A stretch of 64,000 bases of DNA. It comes from Bacteroidales bacterium. GTDB taxonomy: Bacteria; Bacteroidota; Bacteroidia; Bacteroidales; Muribaculaceae. This document shows positions 6,944-28,652 of this stretch, piece by piece. The translations under genes were made by a program, and so were the position numbers. How positions within the stretch are numbered: the stretch's first letter is position 1; each line of letters starts with the position of its first letter. The DNA is taken from assembly GCA_014800815.1 (NCBI GenBank), contig JAAVFI010000008.1, positions 225 through 64,224 of the forward strand, read 5' to 3'. The notes under the pieces are model-generated. The model searched no databases. It was given only the letters and a program-made list of their open reading frames with translations, and was not told where the DNA came from.

Positions 6944-9900
6944 ATGTTCAGCAAATTCTTTATCAACAGGCCGATTTTCGCAACGGTACTTGCGATTATC
7001 ATGATTCTGGCCGGCTTGCTCACCGTGCGGACTCTCCCGGTTGCCCAGTACCCCGATATCACACCTCCTACGGTGTTTGTTTCAGCTACATATCCCGGAG
7101 CTGACGCCAAGACGGTCGCAGAGACCGTCGGCGTTCCTATCGAGGAACAGGTCAACGGTGTGGAGGGCATGATGTATATGAGCTCTACTTCGGGCTCCGA
7201 CGGATCTTATTCTCTCGAAATAACTTTCGAGAACGGTACAGACCCCGACATGGCTGCAGTTAAGGTGCAGAACCGCGTGGCTCAGGCAGAGTCCGTGCTC
7301 CCCGGAGCTGTCAAGCAGCAGGGAGTCTCGGTCAATTCCCGTTCTTCGAACATGATTCTTATGGTGGCTCTCGAGGGCAAGGATAAGGGACGATACAACA
7401 GTCTGTACCTTACCAACTATGCACAGCTCAGCGTTGTAGACGCACTTTCGCGCATCGACGGTGTAGGCGGTGTCGACGTTTTCGGCGCCGGTGAGTACAG
7501 CATGCGTGTCTGGCTCGACGCCGAGAAGATGCGTGCGCGCAATATCACCGCTTCCGACGTAATGGCTGCAATCTCGAGCCAGAACATGCAGGTGTCGGCA
7601 GGCTCCGTGGGTGCTCCTCCTACAGGCAACGGACAGCAGTTTGAGTACACTCTTACCGCTCAGGGCCGTCTGACAGACGCCGATGAATTCGCCAATATAG
7701 TAGTGCGTACCGACGACAAGGGAGGCATGCTGCGCCTCAAAGATATCGCTACCGTTGAGCTCGGAAGCCAGACATACTCTGCAAGCTCGAATGTATCGGC
7801 TCACGATGCCGGACTTATGGGTATCTATCAGCTCCCCGGTGCTAACGCCATGAAGGTAGCGAAGGCTGTGGAGAAGAAACTCGACGACCTCAAGCAGTAT
7901 TTCCCCGAGGGGGTAGACTACCGTATCGTGCTAAATACCACCGACTTTGTGAGCGCCTCTATCGACGATGTGCTTGTCACATTCCTTGAGACAACTCTCA
8001 TTGTGATGATCGTCATTCTCCTCTTCCTCCAGAACTGGCGCGCGGTGATCATTCCTATGCTTACCATACCTGTATCGCTTATCGCCACATTCGCCGTGAT
8101 GAAGATTATGGGATTTACCCTCAATACATTGACACTCTTCGGCCTTGTGCTTGCCATAGCCATTGTGGTGGACGATGCCATAGTGGTGGTGGAGGACTGT
8201 TCGCGAATACTTAACGCGGGCGGTGTATCTCCAAAACAGGCGGCCACCAAAGCTATGGAAGAACTTCAAGGGCCTGTCATCGGCGAGGTACTCGTACTTC
8301 TGTCGGTATTTATCCCCACGGCATTTATTTCGGGTATTACCGGCCAGCTCTACAAACAGTTCGCTCTCACTATCGCCGTATCAACGGCATTCTCGGGCTT
8401 CAACGCCCTAACCTTTACTCCGGCAATGTGCTCGCTGTTCTTGCGTCCGTCAGGTGGTCAGCCGAGGTTCTTCCTCTACCGTTGGTTCAACAAGGGCTTC
8501 GAATGGGTGCGCAATGTGTATAACAGCACCGTCGGACGCCTCCTCCGCAAGCCTGTGCTTGCCATGATAATCTTCGTGGTGATTTGCGGCGCAGCATTCT
8601 TCGGCTTCCTCCGCTGGCCGACCAGCTACGTGCCCGAAGAAGATATGGGTTACTTCATGACTTCCGTACAGCTTCCCTCGGGAGCATCTCTTGAACGCAC
8701 CGACAGCGTGTCGAGCCGTATTCAGCGCGATATCCTCTCCCTCCCTCAGGTTAAGGATGTGGTCCTCATCAACGGTATGTCGATGATGGGTGGCGGTGCC
8801 GGCAGCAACTACGCCTCAATGTTTGTAATCCTCAAACCCTGGAAAGACCGCAAGGGCAAGAAGAACGATGTGGAGTCGGTTATCGCTCAGGTAGATAAGA
8901 TGACTGCCGACGTTCAGGAGGGCATAGTATTCTCTATCAATCCTCCCGCAATCCCCGGTCTGGGTATGACTTCGGGCCTGCAGATGCAGCTCCTCGACAT
9001 CAACAACCTCGGCCCGACACAGCTCGCGCAGATCGTCGGCGAGATGCAGGCGGAAGCTGCCAAATATCCCGAGCTGAGACAGCTTACATCGCTCTATCAG
9101 GGAGGGGTGCCTCAGTACTCGATTAAGATCGACCGCGACAAGGCCAAAATCTACGGCCTCACACTCGAAGATATCTACACCGAACTATCGTCGTACATGG
9201 GCACCAGCTATGTGAACGATTTCGTGAAGTTCGGCCGCACTTACGAAGTGCTCGTCAGCGGTGATGAAGCCTCCCGTGCGCATGTGCACGACGTCCTCGA
9301 CCTCAGCGTGCGCAACGCCGAAGGAAACATGGTGCCTTTCTCAAGTTTTGCCTCGGTCAACGAAGTAATGGGTCAGGCTACAGTGAGCCGATATAATATG
9401 TACACTACCGCATCGCTGACAGGTACGGTGGCACCGCACGTAAGTTCGTCGAAGGCTATCAAGGCTATGGAAGAAATCGTCAGCAAGGTAGCGGGCAATT
9501 CTGTAAGCTATGCGTGGACAGGCGAGGCTCTGCAGGAAACTCAGGCCGGTACTACTATCGGTATGACGCTTATCTTCGCTATCATCATTACGATTCTCGT
9601 GCTCGCAGCTCAGTATGAATCGTGGACCGACCCCCTCGCCGTAGTAGTGACTACGCCTACCGCAATCCTCGGTACAGTACTCGGATGTATGTTCCTCAGC
9701 CAGAGCATCAGTATCTACACTCAGATAGGTATTATCCTGCTGCTCGGTATGGCGGCGAAGAACGCTATCCTTATCGTAGAATACGCTATGGACTACCGCA
9801 AGGCAGGAGAGCCTGTACGCAAGGCGGCCGAAGATGCGGGCAATGTACGACTCCGACCGATTCTTATGACGGCCCTCGCATTCGTCTTCGGTGTAATGCC

Positions 9901-10120
9901 TATGATTTTCGCCACAGGAGCAGGCGCCGCAAGCCGTGTATCACTCGGTACGGCTGTAGTATTCGGTATGGCAGTCAACGCGATTGCAGGCACACTCTTC
10001 GTACCGAGCTTCTGGGAACTTCTGCAGAATTTCCGCGAGAAGCATCTCTCTAACCTCTTCTCGAAGTCGACAGTCGTGGCTCCGAAGAAAGACGGTCAGG
10101 ACACTGCCGATTCGATATAA
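6944..10120 (+). CDS. RND efflux permease (HAE1/AcrB family)
   Basis: 1058 aa; FFINRPIFATV, AQYPDITPP, IVVDDAIVVVE, KNAILIVE, RLRPILMT proton-relay motifs intact. Confidence 0.96.
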   Translation: MFSKFFINRPIFATVLAIIMILAGLLTVRTLPVAQYPDITPPTVFVSATYPGADAKTVAETVGVPIEEQVNGVEGMMYMSSTSGSDGSYSLEITFENGTDPDMAAVKVQNRVAQAESVLPGAVKQQGVSVNSRSSNMILMVALEGKDKGRYNSLYLTNYAQLSVVDALSRIDGVGGVDVFGAGEYSMRVWLDAEKMRARNITASDVMAAISSQNMQVSAGSVGAPPTGNGQQFEYTLTAQGRLTDADEFANIVVRTDDKGGMLRLKDIATVELGSQTYSASSNVSAHDAGLMGIYQLPGANAMKVAKAVEKKLDDLKQYFPEGVDYRIVLNTTDFVSASIDDVLVTFLETTLIVMIVILLFLQNWRAVIIPMLTIPVSLIATFAVMKIMGFTLNTLTLFGLVLAIAIVVDDAIVVVEDCSRILNAGGVSPKQAATKAMEELQGPVIGEVLVLLSVFIPTAFISGITGQLYKQFALTIAVSTAFSGFNALTFTPAMCSLFLRPSGGQPRFFLYRWFNKGFEWVRNVYNSTVGRLLRKPVLAMIIFVVICGAAFFGFLRWPTSYVPEEDMGYFMTSVQLPSGASLERTDSVSSRIQRDILSLPQVKDVVLINGMSMMGGGAGSNYASMFVILKPWKDRKGKKNDVESVIAQVDKMTADVQEGIVFSINPPAIPGLGMTSGLQMQLLDINNLGPTQLAQIVGEMQAEAAKYPELRQLTSLYQGGVPQYSIKIDRDKAKIYGLTLEDIYTELSSYMGTSYVNDFVKFGRTYEVLVSGDEASRAHVHDVLDLSVRNAEGNMVPFSSFASVNEVMGQATVSRYNMYTTASLTGTVAPHVSSSKAIKAMEEIVSKVAGNSVSYAWTGEALQETQAGTTIGMTLIFAIIITILVLAAQYESWTDPLAVVVTTPTAILGTVLGCMFLSQSISIYTQIGIILLLGMAAKNAILIVEYAMDYRKAGEPVRKAAEDAGNVRLRPILMTALAFVFGVMPMIFATGAGAASRVSLGTAVVFGMAVNAIAGTLFVPSFWELLQNFREKHLSNLFSKSTVVAPKKDGQDTADSI

Positions 10121-10144
10121 CCTAACCTATATTCACTTAGTAAG

Positions 10145-10182
10145 ATTCCCGGTCAGACGCGATGTCAGATCGGGAATTTTTA
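10145..10182 (+). terminator. Intrinsic terminator of RND operon
   Basis: attcccg-gtcagac-gcgat-gtcagat-cgggaat followed by tttta. Confidence 0.7.
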
Positions 10183-10262
10183 GTATGACGGGCATGTCAT
10201 ACATCTGTGGTGAAAGTCCACACTGGGCGTAGTTACGACGAACCTTAAAGCGACTTGCAAGT
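10183..10262 (+). mobile_element. Probable 5' fragment of a class C (IIC) group II intron
   Basis: Begins GTATG 5 nt after the terminator stem; GAC-GGGCAT-GTC hairpin, then GTGGTGAAAGTCCAC, ending near GCAAG; resembles recalled IIC 5' ends; no RT ORF. Confidence 0.5.
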
Positions 10263-10272
10263 TTAGATGGAG

Positions 10273-10644
10273 CTACCTGCCGTCGTGTATCTTCGCGGCG
10301 TCCTGACGGAAGAAATGCCGCTGAATCAGCAACTCGGCCAGCAAGAGCAAAACCACTGGAGGAGCCAATAGAGACAGCAGGTCGAGATTGAATACCGAAG
10401 CAGACATCCCATCAAAGCGTAGCGCTCTGAAAGCAACAGCAAACATCTCGCCGCAATACACTGCAAGAGTTGCAGCTACGAAAAACACGCCGACAACAGC
10501 GAGAATGACGTTAGTCCATAAGCGGCGACGGCTGCGGCGAGCTTCGGCAAGTTTCACGGCAGCCATAATCTGCATATTCATACTTGCGGGCGGCTGAGTG
10601 CCGCGAGCTGCTATAGCTTTTTTCAGGTTTGAATTAGTCTTCAT
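10273..10644 (-). CDS. Small membrane protein, putative anti-sigma factor
   Basis: 123 aa, soluble N-terminus plus two TM segments; overlaps the ECF sigma stop. Confidence 0.7.
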   Translation of the reverse strand: MKTNSNLKKAIAARGTQPPASMNMQIMAAVKLAEARRSRRRLWTNVILAVVGVFFVAATLAVYCGEMFAVAFRALRFDGMSASVFNLDLLSLLAPPVVLLLLAELLIQRHFFRQDAAKIHDGR

Positions 10645-11194
10645 ATTGCGCAGCGAGTTTATTTATAAGTATATACAGCTGTTTGCGGATGCGGTGAAGT
10701 CTCACTTTAACGTTTGCCGGCGTCATGTCCATCACTACTGCGATGTCTACCACAGGCATTTCCTCGAAGTAGAAAAGAGTCACCAATGTGCGGTCCTGCA
10801 CAGAGATCATGTCGAGAGCCTCGGGTAGCGCGCACAGGCGCGTGTCATCCGACTCGAGAAAGACATCGACGGCAGAGTCGGATATTGCCTTCAGTCTCTC
10901 CTCATCGACAGCGACAGTCCTTGACGCCACAGAAGCCCTGCACAGATCTATCACGAGCCGGTAGGCCAAAGAGTAGAGCCATGTGCCGAAACTGCAGCGC
11001 CCATCGAATCGCGAGAGCCTCGTGAAGGCTCGCACAAATATCTCCTGCACTATATCGGGAGCCTCGACACCGCCGGGGGCGACCTTGCTCACAAGCCCGA
11101 AGACACGGGAGGAGTAACGGTCGACGAGTAACCCGAAACTGTCGGTGTCGCCGGAGAGCACGCGATTTATTATTTCTGCATCGGTGAGTTTCAC
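10634..11194 (-). CDS. ECF RNA polymerase sigma factor
   Basis: DIVQEIFVRAF..L.RFDGRCSFGTWLY (region 2); MTPANVKVRLHRIRKQL (region 4). Confidence 0.95.
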   Translation of the reverse strand: MKLTDAEIINRVLSGDTDSFGLLVDRYSSRVFGLVSKVAPGGVEAPDIVQEIFVRAFTRLSRFDGRCSFGTWLYSLAYRLVIDLCRASVASRTVAVDEERLKAISDSAVDVFLESDDTRLCALPEALDMISVQDRTLVTLFYFEEMPVVDIAVVMDMTPANVKVRLHRIRKQLYILINKLAAQYED

Positions 11195-11200
11195 ATATTA

Positions 11201-11230
11201 TTAGACGTATTACAGGGTGCCGAGGTTACA
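11201..11230 (-). promoter_or_regulatory. ECF-type promoter TGTAACC-N16-CGTCTAA driving the sigma gene (leaderless)
   Basis: ggttaca 11224-11230 and ttagacg 11201-11207; -10 ends 6 nt before the GTG at 11194. Confidence 0.7.
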
Positions 11231-11255
11231 TCCTGAAGAAAAATTTCGTAGTACA

Positions 11256-11285
11256 TGTAACCTCCGGACATATAAATCCGTCTAA
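11256..11285 (+). promoter_or_regulatory. ECF-type promoter TGTAACC-N16-CGTCTAA driving the divergent membrane protein
   Basis: tgtaacc 11256-11262, cgtctaa 11279-11285; identical elements and spacing to the opposite promoter. Confidence 0.7.
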
Positions 11286-11312
11286 AAGACAGAAACATTA
11301 AATAACACTCAC

Positions 11313-11696
11313 ATGGATCTAACACCTGTTTTCATTTTCGCAATCATCTCGGTTGCCCTTTACAAAATTCTCCAGCTCTTTGTCTGTCGTCGCGAGCGCC
11401 TTGCAATCATCGAAAAAATCAGCGACGGGATTTCTGCGACACGCATATGCGAGATGCTTAAAAATCAGTTCGGAGACTACACGACACTCCGTTGGGGCTC
11501 GCTTGCAATAGGTTTCGGCATCGGCATGTTGATTACCGCCATCGTCGCCCTTACCTCCAACTGGGACACTTCAATCCCCCATTTTTACCAATACAGGCAG
11601 ATGCTTGCCGGCGGTATCATAATACTTTGTGGAGGTCTCGGACTCATAGCAGGCTATATCATAGAATCGAAGCAACGAAAAGACGCAGAAAAATAA
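11313..11696 (+). CDS. Membrane protein, DUF6249-like
   Basis: RRERLAIIEK, TLRWG.L.IG.GIG pattern with 3 TM helices; family name recalled, not searched. Confidence 0.75.
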   Translation: MDLTPVFIFAIISVALYKILQLFVCRRERLAIIEKISDGISATRICEMLKNQFGDYTTLRWGSLAIGFGIGMLITAIVALTSNWDTSIPHFYQYRQMLAGGIIILCGGLGLIAGYIIESKQRKDAEK

Positions 11697-11750: not shown

Positions 11751-11853
11751 AAGTCGAAGTGCATCTGCAGGGGATTTAAACGGTCCGACTCCTTGCCGCT
11801 TTTTCCGAGCGACAGGCCGAGGAGACGTAGGGGAGTGCATACGTGGGCTTTGT
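11751..11853 (-). repeat. Direct repeat copy 1: decayed duplicate of the dinB 3' end
   Basis: 96/103 nt identical to 14603-14705; encodes KAHVCTPLRLLGLSLGKSGKESDRLNPLQMHFDF. Confidence 0.95.
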
Positions 11854-11857
11854 AACT

Positions 11858-11888
11858 ATCAGTTGGCAATATCTATGTGCCAACTGAT
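11858..11888. repeat. Perfect 11-bp inverted repeat at the islet left junction
   Basis: atcagttggca-N9-tgccaactgat, 4 nt from the direct repeat. Confidence 0.8.
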
Positions 11889-11950
11889 GTAACTGATAAT
11901 ATTTTCGAGCCTTTAACGGTGAAACACTTGTGTAATTTGTTATAAAGTTG

Positions 11951-11958
11951 TACCTTTG
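11951..11958 (+). promoter_or_regulatory. Bacteroidetes -7 promoter element of TA-like operon 1
   Basis: TACCTTTG, with TTG 20 nt upstream (11928-11930). Confidence 0.65.
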
Positions 11959-11985
11959 TAAGGTATTATATAAAAATTTCTGCTT

Positions 11986-12144
11986 ATGGCACGACCGATT
12001 AAAGAAACCCCCGAACTTCGAGGGAACGATGCGGTGAGATTTGAAACCCTGATCTCTACCCCAAAACCTGTGTCCAAAGAGGAGAAGGAGCGAGCCCGCA
12101 AGGCTTATGAAGTAATGAAATCTATCAGCAATTTTCAGTGGTGA
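11986..12144 (+). CDS. 52-aa putative antitoxin (not in ORF track)
   Basis: MARPIKETPELRGNDAVRFETLISTPKPVSKEEKERARKAYEVMKSISNFQW; its TGA overlaps the GNAT GTG (GTGA 12141-12144); similar to 28391-28576. Confidence 0.8.
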   Translation: MARPIKETPELRGNDAVRFETLISTPKPVSKEEKERARKAYEVMKSISNFQW

Positions 12145-12683
12145 AAATTGATTTCAGCAAACTGCGCCAGTTCCAACTCACAGAGGACTCTGACATAAAG
12201 CCGTTCAAATGTGCTGATGACGATTTGAACGAATTTCTCTTTGAAGACGCAAAGCATTTTCAAAGAGAACTCATGGCTGTGACTTATTTGCTCGAATATA
12301 TGGAGCAGAATAAGACCGTAGCCTATTTCAGTTTGCTTGCTGACAAAATTATATTCAATCCTGATGAAAAGGGCGTTTGGAATAAACTTAATCGTAATAT
12401 TCCAAACTCCAAACGTCGCAGAAGTTATCCCGCAGTAAAAGTTGGTCGCCTTGCTGTGAATGAAAATTATTCCGGTCAAGGTCTTGGTACATTCATACTT
12501 GACAACATCAAGTATGCATTCTCTAATGTAAAGCGTCTTGGTTGCCGCTTTATTACAGTAGATGCGCTGAAAACTGCCGTGCCGTTTTATGAACGTAACG
12601 GCTTTCAATGTATAACAGAGTCAGACAAGGACGAAGAAACACGCCTGATGTTCTTCGACCTTAAAAATTTCATAACAGAATGA
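12141..12683 (+). CDS. GNAT acetyltransferase, AtaT/TacT-like putative toxin
   Basis: F.C.DDDLNEFL, YPAVKVGRLAV...YSGQGLG, GCRFITVDA, AVPFYERNGF; start taken at GTG 12141 (track gives 12138). Confidence 0.85.
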   Translation: MKIDFSKLRQFQLTEDSDIKPFKCADDDLNEFLFEDAKHFQRELMAVTYLLEYMEQNKTVAYFSLLADKIIFNPDEKGVWNKLNRNIPNSKRRRSYPAVKVGRLAVNENYSGQGLGTFILDNIKYAFSNVKRLGCRFITVDALKTAVPFYERNGFQCITESDKDEETRLMFFDLKNFITE

Positions 12684-12953
12684 TGTCTATGAAATATCAA
12701 CGGAAGTTCACATGGCGATATGCACACTAACCGTTTTGGTGGTTCATGGTTCACGATGGACGCATCAGTAGGCAAGTCATTCCTGAATAAATCTCTCACT
12801 CTCAAACTGTCTGCTACTGACATTTCTCTCTTTGTGCTAAATCATTTAAATTCAAACACTCTCTAAGAAACTTCATAATGATATTTTATCTGGAAGTAAA
12901 ATTTTTGGCGTATCTTTGCTTTATAATATCCAACACTGTTTCAGTATAACGGT

Positions 12954-14006
12954 ATGTTCATAAAAGACTTTTCTAAACTTTGGTTGCTCTTTGTTATAGT
13001 CACTTTATTTAATTGCTCTACAATTAATGGAACCAATATTGTAACCTATGTTGTTTCAGATAGTATAGACCTTTCTTCAGAGAAACTTAAAATGGAATTA
13101 GAGAGTTTTTCAAATGGGGATGATAAGGTTAGAATCTCTTTTAAATTGAAAAGTGCCAATGTGCCTTTTACGATTTATGATGCAAGATGGGTGAATTGTG
13201 ATACAACACTTGTCCCATCCGAACCTTTCTCATTGATTGCGCAAACTAATGAGGTGTCCGGTAAAAACACCGAATGGCACATCTCTCTTGATTTCCCATT
13301 CTCTGATACATTTGAAGATGATGATGTTTTAATTCTAAACACTGACAAAGGAATTATAAGATGTCCTACATCGATTACCGGAAAACTAAGAGTAGAGCTG
13401 GATCTTCTTCGCAACGACTATGAGAATGCAAAAATGAGTGTGCAGAATACATGGATACTTTTATTTGTTACATTGGCGTCTGTTATTGTTATCAGTGCAA
13501 TTGTTTTAATTGTTGTCAAGCGAAGGCTTACACGAAAGCAGAGAGAGATTGAAGAACTTTCAATGCTTATTTCGGAGAGAACCAATCGCAACTATGAACT
13601 GGAGGCGCAGGTTAATACTCTATATAGCAGTCGGCTTGACACGCTGAATATGTTATGTAATGAGTATTTTGAAAAAAGTGATTCCGAGAAGGTGAAACTT
13701 TCGCTATATAATGAAGTTGAAAAACAGATATTGGCTTTACGTGATACCAAAAGGATAGCAGAACTTGAAACGATTGTCAATAAATACATGGACAATATTC
13801 TCGCAAAGGTTCGTGAACAGTTGCCCGAACTTACCGGCAAAGATTTGATATTCCTTACTTATCTCTATGCCGGTTTCGCACCTCGGGCAGTTTGTATTTT
13901 TACCGATATAAAGATTAAGAATTTTTACAACCGTCGAAGCCGACTTAAGGACCGCATCCTTGAATCAAGTGCACCGGATAAGGAAACTTTTGTTTCTAAA
14001 ATGTAG
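12954..14006 (+). CDS. Membrane-spanning regulator with C-terminal LuxR-like HTH
   Basis: Signal peptide, extracytoplasmic domain, TM (WILLFV..IVVK), coiled coil, LPELTGKDLIFLTYLYAGF.PRAVCIF...NFYNRRSRLKDRI; TATCTTTG promoter at 12911-12918. Confidence 0.75.
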   Translation: MFIKDFSKLWLLFVIVTLFNCSTINGTNIVTYVVSDSIDLSSEKLKMELESFSNGDDKVRISFKLKSANVPFTIYDARWVNCDTTLVPSEPFSLIAQTNEVSGKNTEWHISLDFPFSDTFEDDDVLILNTDKGIIRCPTSITGKLRVELDLLRNDYENAKMSVQNTWILLFVTLASVIVISAIVLIVVKRRLTRKQREIEELSMLISERTNRNYELEAQVNTLYSSRLDTLNMLCNEYFEKSDSEKVKLSLYNEVEKQILALRDTKRIAELETIVNKYMDNILAKVREQLPELTGKDLIFLTYLYAGFAPRAVCIFTDIKIKNFYNRRSRLKDRILESSAPDKETFVSKM

Positions 14007-14166: not shown

Positions 14167-14484
14167 ATGAAAAAAATCTTTTTAACTGCAGTTTTCAGCC
14201 TCGCGGTTTTTGCGGCTTCTGCTGAAATCAAGTTCCAATCTCTCGACAATGTCAAGGGGACTAACGTAGTGCTGGTAGATGAAAACGCTCCGCAAACAGT
14301 CAATATCACCGATGCTATTTTATCAAATAATGGTAGCGAGTATCCCGCGAAAGAAATAAGATGCGACGTGGTAAACGGAGTTGCAACCTACAAACTCAAG
14401 TTCAAACGACACACCCATTTCAAAGACACTAAAGTAACGCTTACTGTCAATGGGAAAAAAATCACCATAGACATTCTGGATTAA
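14167..14484 (+). CDS. Small secreted beta-rich hypothetical protein
   Basis: SPI signal MKKIFLTAVFSLAVFAASA; TAATTTTG promoter upstream. Confidence 0.8.
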   Translation: MKKIFLTAVFSLAVFAASAEIKFQSLDNVKGTNVVLVDENAPQTVNITDAILSNNGSEYPAKEIRCDVVNGVATYKLKFKRHTHFKDTKVTLTVNGKKITIDILD

Positions 14485-14598: not shown

Positions 14599-15666
14599 CT
14601 AAAAGTCGAAGTGCATCTGCAGGGGATTTTCGCGGTCCGACTCCTTGCCGCTTTTTCCGAGCGACAGGCCGAGGAGGCGTAGGGGAGTGCGCACGTTGGC
14701 TTTGTCGAGCAGGCTGCGGGCGGCTGTGAGTATTTCTTCAACCGTAGCCACGGGGGAGAATCCCGAGAGGGAGCGGGTGTGGGTGTCGAAGGCCGATGTG
14801 CGCAACTTGAGTGTGAGCACACTGCCGTCGAACTCTTTTGTGCTGATGCGTCGGTGCAGTTCCTCGGCGAGCGACGCCAGTATGCCGTCGAGTTCGGCAG
14901 GGTCGCTGATGTCGGAGTCGAATGTGCGTTCGCATCCTATTGACTTGCGGACGCGGAAAGCTTCGACGGGACGATTGTCGACGCCACGGGCAAAATCGTA
15001 GTACTGTTTGCCGGCTTTGCCGAAGTAGAGCCGAAGTTCGGGTACTGAAAGATTGCGCAGATCGGCGCCTGTGTATATTCCGAGAGAGTGCATCTTGGCA
15101 GCTGTCACGGGGCCTACTCCCCAGAAACTTTCCACGGGCATGTGGGCTATGAATTCGGCTGCGCGCTCGGGAGCTATCACGCATAGTCCGTCGGGTTTGC
15201 GGTAGTCGGATGCTATCTTGGCGAGGAACTTGTTGAACGACACGCCGGCAGATGCTACGAGGCCGAGTTCGTCGCGTATCGCCTTCTTAATGTCGCGGGC
15301 GATGTCGAGTGCAAGAGGGATGTTACGGTGATTTTCCGTTACGTCGAGGAAGGCCTCGTCGAGTGATATAGGCTCGATGATATCGGTATGGCGGTGTAAT
15401 ATTTCGTGAATCTGTGCCGATACCGCCTTGTATACGTCGAACCTGCAGTCGACGAATGTAAGCTGCGGGCACAGCTTGCGTGCTTTGGACGACGACATGG
15501 CGGATCGCACTCCGAAGCGGCGTGCCTCGTAGCTTGCCGCGCATACCACACCGCGTCCGTCGGCCTGACCTACGGCTATAGGCACACCGCGGAGGGCGGG
15601 ATTGTCGCGCTGTTCTACCGAAGCGTAGAAAGCGTCCATGTCGATGTGTATGATTTTGCGAACCAT
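14599..15666 (-). CDS. dinB: DNA polymerase IV
   Basis: RKIIHIDMDAFYASVEQRD, ASYEARRFGV.SAM, SLDEAFLD, NKFLAKIASD..KPDG; C-terminal clamp-like QMHFDF; ATG at 15666. Confidence 0.97.
   Translation of the reverse strand: MVRKIIHIDMDAFYASVEQRDNPALRGVPIAVGQADGRGVVCAASYEARRFGVRSAMSSSKARKLCPQLTFVDCRFDVYKAVSAQIHEILHRHTDIIEPISLDEAFLDVTENHRNIPLALDIARDIKKAIRDELGLVASAGVSFNKFLAKIASDYRKPDGLCVIAPERAAEFIAHMPVESFWGVGPVTAAKMHSLGIYTGADLRNLSVPELRLYFGKAGKQYYDFARGVDNRPVEAFRVRKSIGCERTFDSDISDPAELDGILASLAEELHRRISTKEFDGSVLTLKLRTSAFDTHTRSLSGFSPVATVEEILTAARSLLDKANVRTPLRLLGLSLGKSGKESDRENPLQMHFDF
14603..14705 (-). repeat. Direct repeat copy 2: functional dinB 3' end
   Basis: Pairs with 11751-11853 (7 mismatches). Confidence 0.95.
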
Positions 15667-15694
15667 AGTTTGCGGAGAGATTGAAAGAGAGGGT

Positions 15695-15729
15695 AAAAAA
15701 AGAGGCAAGCACTTGATGCGCTTGCCTCT
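15695..15729 (-). terminator. Terminator after tRNA-Glu, 28 nt upstream of dinB
   Basis: agaggcaagc..gcttgcctct stem followed by U-tract on minus. Confidence 0.8.
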
Positions 15730-15744
15730 ATCGGCTTGATTTTG

Positions 15745-15817
15745 TAGCGAATCAGGGAATCGAACCCTGGTCTCCACCGTGAGAGGGTGGCGTGCTAGGC
15801 CACTACACTAAATCGCC
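15745..15817 (-). tRNA. tRNA-Glu (anticodon CTC)
   Basis: GGCGATTTAGTGTAGTGGCCTAGCACG-CCACC-CTCTCAC-GGTGG-AGACCAGGGTTCGATTCCCTGATTCGCTA; TAACTTTG promoter at 15835-15842. Confidence 0.93.
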
Positions 15818-27785: not shown

Positions 27786-28394
27786 TTATCGAGATTTTAA
27801 GTCGAAGAACATAAATCGAGTTTTTAGAGGTTCTTGCGGTGATAATTCCAGAAAAGTTCTTTCTTCGTCTTCTGATTTATACAAAGGTTTAAAACCATTT
27901 TTTTTGTAGAAATGTATGGTTTTATCATTGTTATACGCATCAACTACAATGAACCGACACCCGGTTTTATTGTCTGTAGATTTAAACCACTCTTTTACAT
28001 AATCAATAATCTGACTTCCGATTTTCAAACCTTTACCGCGATATAGGGTGGAGACTCCAAGACGTCCTATAAGCACTGCAGGGTAATTTATACCACGTTT
28101 AGTATTTATAACGGAGCGCTGAAGTCTGTTGAGGGCAGATTTTGCAATAAGTTTCAACTTTACACTATCATTGGACAGTGTAATCATTCCTAAAATTTCT
28201 TTAGGGTCAGATTTGTTGACCCAAGCGTAAGTTTTGCCTAACAGTTCTGAGTCGTAATGTAAGGCTACGTTGGTGAAAAAATCATCTAAATCATTATCCT
28301 CACAGCAAAATGGAGTGCAGAATGCCGCTAATTCTGCTGTATAGGGAACTTTGACTGCATCTTTTGAAAGATCAAAATTTAGAGATTTATTCAT
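27786..28394 (-). CDS. GNAT acetyltransferase, AtaT/TacT-like putative toxin
   Basis: FCCEDNDLDDFF, YPAVLIGRLGV...YRGKG..IG, GCRFIVVDA, FYKKNGF, MFFDLK. Confidence 0.85.
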   Translation of the reverse strand: MNKSLNFDLSKDAVKVPYTAELAAFCTPFCCEDNDLDDFFTNVALHYDSELLGKTYAWVNKSDPKEILGMITLSNDSVKLKLIAKSALNRLQRSVINTKRGINYPAVLIGRLGVSTLYRGKGLKIGSQIIDYVKEWFKSTDNKTGCRFIVVDAYNNDKTIHFYKKNGFKPLYKSEDEERTFLELSPQEPLKTRFMFFDLKSR

Positions 28395-28576
28395 CCTTTC
28401 TTTCCAAATAACTGTTGATAGAATTCCCGAGATTTGCGTTCAATTTCTCGGAGATATTCTTCGCGCTCAGGAGATAGGCGAGGAGTTGGATTCTGTGCAT
28501 TTCTTTCTGCCTCTTCAAAAAAGATACGGGCAGATTCACCGGTAAGAATTGGTGAAGAGTTGATTGTCATTGCCAT
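28391..28576 (-). CDS. 61-aa putative antitoxin
   Basis: MAMTINSSPILTGESARIF...; ATGA overlap with the GNAT; TATATTTG promoter at 28597-28604; similar to 11986-12144. Confidence 0.78.
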   Translation of the reverse strand: MAMTINSSPILTGESARIFFEEAERNAQNPTPRLSPEREEYLREIERKSREFYQQLFGKKG

Positions 28577-28652
28577 AATAATATACTTTTAGACTACAAA
28601 TATACTACTATATAACATATTGCGCAAAAAAATTGCACAATATTAATTAGTA

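Follow-up and report, generated by a model that had tools for sequence, protein, structure and literature searches.

A widespread Bacteroidales peptide–GNAT cassette resembling a toxin–antitoxin module with a candidate minimal antitoxin

We analysed a window of 64,000 nucleotides (nt) from contig JAAVFI010000008.1 of a Muribaculaceae genome (GCA_014800815.1), and all coordinates given below are positions in this window. The window carries two diverged copies of a small gene pair, each consisting of a peptide gene (candidate antitoxin) that overlaps a downstream gene for a protein of the GNAT (Gcn5-related N-acetyltransferase) family (candidate toxin). A previous sequence-only reading had claimed at copy 1 a 52-residue open reading frame (ORF) with its own -7 promoter and a GTGA overlap onto the GNAT gene, as well as a diverged second copy on the same stretch; all of these features are present (Table 1). 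The copy-1 GNAT gene has two in-frame GTG candidates for its start codon, one at 12141 generating the GTGA overlap and the other at 12138 generating a 7-nt overlap. The start/stop overlap implies translational coupling between the two genes. The reading frame of the copy-1 peptide opens at 11974, only 12 nt 5' of the ATG, so that no longer N-terminal extension, such as a ribbon-helix-helix (RHH) domain, can be encoded in the peptide frame. The second pair lies on the minus strand (28576-27786). Its GNAT is 36% identical to that of copy 1 (E = 1e-31), and 19 N-terminal residues match between the two peptide families (hhalign E = 3.5e-5, probability 72%), both of which share the N-terminal motif MA-x2-I-x3-P-x-L-x-G-x2-A-x2-F.

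Table 1. Parts of the two peptide–GNAT cassettes in the 64,000-nt window
Feature	Position	Strand	Basis
Copy-1 upstream part with -7 box and A/T-rich leader	11895..11985	+	Sequence; cross-genome homology from ~11895
Copy-1 Bacteroidetes-type -7 box of TAnnTTTG form, TACCTTTG	11951-11958	+	35 nt 5' of ATG
Copy-1 peptide gene, 52 aa, ATG start, TGA stop, MARPIKETPELRGNDAVRFETLISTPKPVSKEEKERARKAYEVMKSISNFQW (candidate minimal antitoxin)	11986..12144	+	ORF
Copy-1 GNAT gene (candidate toxin), 181 aa from GTG 12138 or 180 aa from GTG 12141	12138..12683	+	ORF, Pfam
Copy-1 GTGA start/stop overlap; peptide TGA at 12142-12144	12141..12144	+	Sequence
Conserved copy-1 cassette of ~0.8 kb, from the promoter through both genes to 13 nt past the GNAT stop	11895..12696	+	Extent of blastn matches in public-run contigs and 19 related loci
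Copy-2 leader	28577..28604	-	Sequence; family-wide motif position
Copy-2 -7 box, TATATTTG	28604-28597	-	Sequence
Copy-2 peptide gene, 61 aa, MAMTINSSPILTGESARIFFEEAERNAQNPTPRLSPEREEYLREIERKSREFYQQLFGKKG	28576..28391	-	ORF; N-terminal motif common to copy 1
Copy-2 GNAT gene, 202 aa, ATGA overlap on peptide stop	28394..27786	-	ORF

The peptide gene is genuine and under strong purifying selection. The 159-nt ORF was intact in all 46 related genome loci, among which the median pairwise dN/dS was 0.05, and the variable codon positions comprised 50 third positions (of 53), 27 first positions and 23 second positions. Close homologs of the copy-1 peptide formed 162 clusters and those of the copy-2 peptide 254 clusters (mostly 58-63 aa), with lengths nearly uniform within each of the two sets. 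They were found mostly in Muribaculaceae and other Bacteroidales and, where named at all, were always annotated as 'hypothetical protein' (e.g., WP_004295314.1). One record labelled as a metagenome-assembled genome (MAG) of Paenibacillus sp. (L038, JAMPHR010000002.1) encodes exactly the same peptide as a Duncaniella MAG (L037), and the GNATs of the two are equally identical to the query; the label is probably a binning error. A full HMMER search of 1.84 billion representatives (clusters at 50% identity), using a profile of both peptide subfamilies, recovered 801 clusters at E ≤ 1e-3, all of them small proteins of 40-115 aa. The profile match begins at residue 1 of the family members, save where an upstream start was clearly miscalled. 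The suggestion that the second copy marks a family is supported. A frameshifted or truncated DUF1778 pseudogene was rejected on account of the short open frame 5' of the ATG and of the 52-residue length, which is kept across hundreds of clusters.

Among 77 diverse members of the family, M1, P9, G13 and F19 were invariant, and A2, I5, L11 and A16 were near-invariant. Downstream of this motif we noticed a hydrophobic residue at position 23, often P-x-P, S/T30, E32, Y41 and F50. The two window peptides matched no Pfam or NCBIfam model at E ≤ 1, and the 77 diverse peptides gave no credible Pfam match and no RHH family even at E ≤ 1 among the 25 most frequent of the 35 families hit. A homolog search with the diverse peptide alignment returned close relatives only, none of which bore an informative name. 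The AlphaFold2 (AF2) model of the peptide, based on 26 sequences (mean predicted local distance difference test score, pLDDT, 82.6), consists of a coil at residues 1-13, a helix at 14-24, a loop at 25-30 (TPKPVS) and a second helix at 31-49. Foldseek, which is weak on small models, found for it a single meaningless match (E = 9.9) and no RHH protein in the PDB.

On sequence comparison, the GNATs are specifically related to the TacT/AtaT/KacT-type toxins of toxin–antitoxin (TA) systems. Both window GNATs matched Pfam GNAT models above threshold, and copy 1 exceeded the curated cut-offs for Acetyltransf_7 (2.8e-9), Acetyltransf_10 (4.1e-9) and Acetyltransf_1 (6.1e-6). The best PDB-chain matches for both were 7f37 and entries of AtaT (6gts, 6ajm, 6ajn and 7chd), KacT (5zgn and 5xun) and TacT, with 9ilr also among the top matches. 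Further top matches were 7f36, 6g96, 7ak7-9 and 5fvj; the last three designations, 6g96, 7ak7-9 and 5fvj, are annotated in the PDB simply as acetyltransferases and are probably TacT-family entries. E values of the PDB matches ranged from 1.5e-8 to ~4e-4 for copy 1 (over residues ~13-160) and from 1.3e-7 to 0.1 for copy 2. The N-terminal half, the F-x-C-G..L-N-x-F/W-L motif and the catalytic tyrosine are all included in these alignments. The next PDB chain for copy 1 was GNA1 (E = 2e-3), which covered the generic acetyl-coenzyme A (AcCoA) region only. 7F36 is TacT with tRNA (PMC13219725); 7f37 is a GNAT chain with the neighbouring entry code and, like 9ilr, is given here by its code only.

AtaT/TacT-type motifs had been read from the copy-1 GNAT, and we aligned 49 Bacteroidales GNATs with 11 plasmid GNATs having annotated DUF1778 partners. 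Common to both sets were F23, C25, G26, L30, N31, F/W33 and L34 (F-x-C-G..L-N-x-F/W-L) in the N-terminal region, G103-R-L-A106, the loop G113-x-G115-x-G117, F150-Y151 and G155-F156. Residues Y151 and R153 of the copy-1 GNAT align with Y145 and R147 of KacT, respectively, of which Y145 is the catalytic tyrosine (PMC6698736). The Bacteroidales GNATs additionally bear clade-specific residues, namely D69, D142, T168-R169, D174 and a basic insertion, P-N-x-K-R-R-x-S-Y-P, at residues 89-98 (K-R-R at 92-94). K92 was present in 49/49 sequences, whereas the DUF1778-linked GNATs lack the insertion, which could be an added tRNA-binding or peptide-docking element.

The linkage between peptide and GNAT was sampled from both sides. 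Independently of the GNAT, a degenerate DNA pattern for MARPIKETPxLxG retrieved 125 complete peptide ORFs from metagenome and IMG/VR contigs. A homolog of the window GNATs followed directly downstream in 95 of these, 8 ran off the contig and 22 were other cases, which corresponds to a GNAT directly 3' of the peptide in 95/117 assessable ORFs (81%). The distance from the peptide stop to the GNAT start in the 95 loci was mostly -4 to +6 nt. The 22 other loci included frameshifted GNATs (L109, L163 and L178), a HEPN protein and apparently orphan peptides. The converse sampling took the GNAT as its starting point and covered 185,579 species genomes; here, an intact peptide lay 5' of 42/42 full-length GNATs, and the peptide-less loci contained GNAT fragments only; two loci with a truncated or frameshifted GNAT still kept the peptide. 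The co-occurrence of the two genes, one of the checks named in the sequence-only reading, is tight. Intact peptides stand beside truncated, frameshifted or absent GNATs (L022, L042, L109, L163, L178 and others), and none of the 42 full-length GNATs sampled was without the peptide. A GNAT that does harm when the peptide is missing would be expected to leave such a pattern, and the asymmetry of decay is the strongest indirect functional evidence that we obtained for a toxin/antitoxin pair.

Several non-standard arrangements were also seen. In one locus (L121) the peptide precedes a HEPN-domain protein (Pfam 2.9e-19) across a 54-nt gap, and in metagenome or viral contigs (L100, L090/L155/L179) it precedes either a coiled-coil protein of 249 aa or, across a 1-nt gap, a 167-aa protein that belongs to no known family. 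Such peptides are orphans left after GNAT loss or else have swapped partners. In six database proteins (P0377, P0382, P0386, P0374, P0246 and P0263) the peptide runs straight into GNAT sequence. Such run-on proteins are probably products of frameshifts or assembly errors, and they independently confirm the adjacency of the two genes in distant family members.

The promoter travels with the pair. A TAnnTTTG box starts at -50 to -20 in 90 of 112 family loci as compared with 13 occurrences in the rest of the -120 to -1 region, an enrichment far above chance, and the -7 box belongs to the unit. Besides the boxes, a perfect 9-nt inverted repeat, CAGTTGGCA-N9-TGCCAACTG, is located at 11860-11886, immediately before the copy-1 cassette, and the stretch just 5' of the copy-2 -7 box holds an inverted repeat of 11 nt, ATATTGCGCAA / TTGCACAATAT, at 28617-28643. 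These repeats might serve as operators or recombination sites, or might terminate transcription of the genes upstream.

The peptide had been claimed to resemble only the toxin-binding tail of DUF1778 antitoxins. We compared the peptide family profile with an alignment of 11 DUF1778 antitoxins from annotated plasmid loci by hhalign. In the best local alignment, peptide residues 10-56 fell on the DUF1778 C-terminal tail, with a score of 22.7 (P = 6e-4, probability 28%) as compared with 300 column-shuffled controls (mean 8.9, SD 1.9, max 17.1) and the reversed alignment (15.6). Against the DUF1778 tail alone the match improved to P = 9e-5 (probability 60%), whereas against the RHH half P was 0.11; the copy-1 peptide family alone matched DUF1778 with P = 0.0035. 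In line with the claim, no RHH was detectable in the peptide, and the tail is matched in the proposed register, albeit the match itself is weak.

The toxin-binding region of KacA consists of betaB (52-56), alphaC (57-70), the linker 71-PPAP-74 and alphaD (75-86), and in the KacA-KacT-DNA crystal structure betaB pairs with strand beta3 of KacT (PMC6698736). KacA W61, V64, A67 and I68 pack on hydrophobic residues of KacT, R77 disturbs the AcCoA site, and KacA blocks KacT dimerisation (PMC6698736). In the hhalign register combined with MAFFT, peptide residues A16, F19, L22, I23 and P26 lie opposite the KacA-type W61, V64, A67, I68 and P71, respectively, and two of them, the near-invariant A16 and the invariant F19, are conserved positions of the family. 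The coil, helix, proline linker and helix of the AF2 model likewise match the betaB-alphaC-PPAP-alphaD layout of KacA. This correspondence is no more than suggestive; it may stem from common descent through loss of the RHH domain or from convergence on the same binding groove.

Nucleotide similarity to 19 related loci and to public-run contigs, as judged by blastn, spans ~11895 to ~12696, stopping 13 nt past the GNAT stop, and the flanks are unrelated. The public runs, labelled 'RNA?', are assembled contigs several kb long that probably contain DNA, and they were read only for presence and cassette boundaries. We saw no terminal repeats or recombinase in the cassette at 11895-12696. Elsewhere, the cassette sits between carA and a gene for a tetratricopeptide repeat (TPR) protein, or between genes for a major facilitator superfamily (MFS) transporter and a Sel1 protein. 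In a Parabacteroides distasonis record the pair (RefSeq WP_004295314.1 for the peptide and WP_004295313.1) lies beside an integrase, and in the temperate Bacteroides phage BS-TP1 (L204, PQ571274, 1978-3007) it adjoins the phage integrase. In the latter, the GNAT is gp120, 41% identical to that of copy 1, and the peptide (MARPIKNTPVLYGKDAERF...) lies hidden towards the 3' end of gp121, which is annotated with 167 aa, probably because the gene was called too long. Since the conserved DNA is limited to ~11895-12696 and the neighbours differ, no third gene travels with the pair; none, including a DNA-binding regulator, was conserved with it across the related loci and the carA/TPR, MFS/Sel1, integrase and dinB settings. 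Unrelated chromosomal contexts, integrase neighbours and a temperate phage make up a distribution typical of TA modules.

In the window, copy 1 sits in a 2.85-kb insert of 38% GC between 103-nt direct repeats (11751-11853 and 14603-14705, 93% identical), which carry a duplicated 3' end of the minus-strand gene dinB (14599..15777). Two further genes lie in the insert, one (12954..14006) for a membrane protein of 350 aa and the other (14167..14484) for a secreted protein of 105 aa, and no recombinase was found inside it. The insert has the appearance of a scar left by an element that had integrated into the 3' end of dinB. The region upstream of copy 1 (6944-11696) encodes a resistance-nodulation-division (RND) efflux pump (6944..10120), a putative anti-sigma membrane protein (10273..10644, minus strand), an extracytoplasmic function (ECF)-type sigma factor (10634..11194, minus strand) and, at 11313..11696, a membrane protein with a DUF6249 match (Pfam 7.6e-11); the sigma and anti-sigma factors were read from their translations.

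GNAT homology, linkage, the asymmetry of decay, the likeness of the peptide to the DUF1778 tail, its predicted shape and the cassette distribution together lead us to hold, with moderate confidence, that both copies are TA-like cassettes of type II, that they represent a Bacteroidales lineage of the GNAT (TacT/AtaT/KacT) family, and that their antitoxin is a minimal one without RHH. Several points weigh against this proposal. The similarity between the peptide and the DUF1778 tail is weak, its HH probabilities being 28-60%, and the copy-2 peptide family alone gave P = 0.09, below significance. Column shuffling destroys helical periodicity, and the significance is accordingly overstated; a run in which the tail columns were shuffled gave an erratic outlier (max 134.6), and the whole-alignment shuffle was relied on. 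A PDB profile search with the peptide families returned no AtaR, KacA or TacA chain, and the AF2 model of the GNAT alone, built from the two window sequences, was unusable (pLDDT 37). About 12-19% of the sampled peptides have no intact GNAT neighbour, and PADLOC-DB 2.0 contained 0 families matching the peptide or the GNAT at E ≤ 1. Finally, in their study of GNAT toxins, Bikmetov et al. leave open whether comparable bicistrons are TA pairs or serve other physiological roles (PMC9177977).

It is unlikely, in our judgement, that the GNAT descends from the toxin lineage but is an ordinary acetyltransferase whose substrate is a small molecule, an antibiotic or a protein, with the peptide as its regulatory or accessory subunit or merely a co-translated partner. 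The lack of a PADLOC match would suit such an enzyme, as would the occurrence of the cassette between housekeeping genes in several species with no mobile-element genes nearby, and the clade-specific K-R-R insertion (92-94), D69, D142, T168-R169 and D174 could mean a changed substrate. Nevertheless, the contexts differ between species and the homology ends at the cassette edges, which argues against integration into a pathway; the 42/42 intact GNATs accompanied by the peptide, together with the decayed GNATs beside intact peptides, are as toxicity predicts; and the catalytic tyrosine and the N-terminal motif of the TA toxins are kept. That same asymmetry of gene decay is left unexplained if the peptide is a substrate of the GNAT or a product precursor, for instance an N-terminally or lysine-acetylated small protein or a precursor akin to ribosomally synthesised and post-translationally modified peptides. 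We regard this possibility as very improbable indeed, given that no transporter, protease or maturation gene is conserved with the 0.8-kb cassette and that the closest relatives of the GNAT act on aminoacyl-tRNA. It does draw on the extreme conservation of the peptide N-terminus, including a Met-Ala that would expose alanine after removal of the methionine, and on GNATs elsewhere that acetylate peptide N-termini; a title in the reference list of PMC6698736 also has TacT acetylating TacA.

The peptide might, alternatively, be a very divergent minimal RHH protein or another dimeric DNA-binding protein, and the pair a conventional, autoregulated RHH-GNAT TA system. With its basic, extended N-terminus (R3 and K6), 11-residue helix, loop and 19-residue helix, the peptide superficially follows a beta-alpha-alpha order, and small inverted repeats occur near both promoters (11860-11886 and 28617-28643). 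RHH proteins have a tight G-x-S/T turn between their helices. The peptide has instead a six-residue, proline-containing linker at this place, besides the invariant or near-invariant prolines P4 and P9. No RHH family appeared among the Pfam matches of the 77 members in the scope given above, nor did the Foldseek comparison, weak as it is on small models, yield one; the hhalign P value was 0.11 for the RHH half of DUF1778 as opposed to 9e-5 for the tail; and an RHH domain within 52 residues would leave none for toxin neutralisation. A cryptic RHH protein is therefore quite improbable.

If the pair is indeed a TA-like cassette, we infer its toxicity, binding, target and regulation as follows. The conserved sigma-ABfr-type promoter would drive a bicistronic message, from which the peptide of 50-60 residues would be made first and the GNAT second, by coupled translation. 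The peptide would represent just the toxin-neutralising half of a DUF1778 antitoxin, namely an extended N-terminal segment, an amphipathic helix, a proline-containing linker and a second helix. By analogy to the docking of KacA betaB-alphaC on KacT, the N-terminal motif (I5, P9, L11, G13, A16 and F19) and the first helix may dock on the GNAT, and the more variable second helix may confer specificity. The docked peptide would keep the GNAT from AcCoA, from tRNA or from a second GNAT subunit, while the freed GNAT, judging from its homologs, would acetylate the amino group of charged tRNA and stop translation. Given that the peptide lacks a recognisable RHH domain and that the pair is not accompanied by a regulator gene, classical autorepression of the operon is improbable, as is repression of the promoter by the peptide. 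The ratio of antitoxin to toxin could then be set by coupled translation and by turnover of the peptide, which is admittedly speculative.

A broader picture is put forward only as a tentative and somewhat doubtful possibility. Bacteroidales may possess a large lineage of tRNA-acetylating GNATs in which the antitoxin has been cut down to a module of ~50 residues and autorepression has been dispensed with. The 0.8-kb cassette may be spreading among temperate phages such as BS-TP1, integrative elements and sites in the chromosome, and may serve gut Bacteroidales for addiction or for abortive infection/superinfection exclusion. The TA-like nature that we propose for the pair would also allow it to act in phage defence or prophage maintenance.

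Compared with other TA toxins, those of the GNAT type are rather well understood, being involved in persistence in Salmonella and in plasmid maintenance in Shigella, and to our knowledge nearly all that has been learned of them comes from Proteobacteria with DUF1778 antitoxins. The cassettes described here place the same kind of toxin across hundreds of Bacteroidales lineages, with a partner peptide that is unnamed in any domain library. If our interpretation is true, the peptide is a natural minimal antitoxin for dissecting the neutralisation of GNAT toxins, the operon is a test case for TA balance with no autorepressor, and the motif MA-x2-I-x3-P-x-L-x-G-x2-A-x2-F is an easily searched marker by which TA or defence cassettes could be annotated in Bacteroides phages and in metagenomes of the gut. 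Annotations that bury the peptide in a longer ORF, such as gp121 of BS-TP1, would then need to be corrected. We regard the module as a solid lead for experiment rather than as a new principle.

In its antitoxin-then-toxin order with overlapping or abutting ORFs, the pair is organised like TacA-TacT, AtaR-AtaT, KacA-KacT, ItaRT and GmvAT, and it shares with these GNAT/DUF1778 systems the GNAT fold, the N-terminal F-x-C-G..L-N-x-F/W-L, the GRLA strand, the AcCoA loop and the catalytic tyrosine. It differs from them in that the partner has 50-60 residues instead of ~90, lacks RHH and has no match to PF08681, and in the basic insertion of the GNAT, the mostly Bacteroidales hosts and the Bacteroidetes-type promoter. 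Since the antitoxin with DUF1778 (PF08681) and RHH that defines those systems is absent, we do not file the pair as a strict GNAT/DUF1778 member. Antitoxins devoid of a DNA-binding domain are represented by PaaA2 of the paaR2-paaA2-parE2 system and epsilon of the omega-epsilon-zeta system, in both of which the repressor is encoded by a separate gene. The peptide resembles PaaA2 and epsilon in being short and, as predicted here, largely helical and solely neutralising; unlike in those systems, no third (repressor) gene is conserved with the 0.8-kb cassette. The literature yielded nothing specific on a characterised GNAT TA system of Bacteroidales or on the RefSeq accessions of the pair, and the 'GNAT/XAT' pair of the cfiA element of B. 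fragilis is a different proposal, not this module.

A GNAT toxin with an exchanged antitoxin does have a precedent in VcaA-VcaT, in which a DUF4065 (Panacea) protein takes the place of the DUF1778 antitoxin (Bikmetov et al. 2022, PMC9177977). The peptide differs from VcaA as well, for it lacks DUF4065 (it has no Pfam match and is far too short) and looks more like a DUF1778 tail that has undergone reduction than like an exchanged domain. The same study remarked that GNATs outside the 'true TA clade' occur in TA-like bicistrons behind 'divergent' short ORFs that lack DNA-binding domains (PMC9177977). As a description, this fits our module exactly. The suggestion of an undescribed module must therefore be narrowed, as such bicistrons had been remarked on generically; they were nonetheless left uncharacterised there and no family was defined, whereas the short ORFs analysed here constitute one coherent family with an invariant N-terminal motif. 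What our comparisons add to that account is the coherence and very large size of the peptide family, the asymmetric dependence of the GNAT on the peptide, and the apparent likeness between the peptide and that half of a DUF1778 antitoxin which neutralises the toxin.

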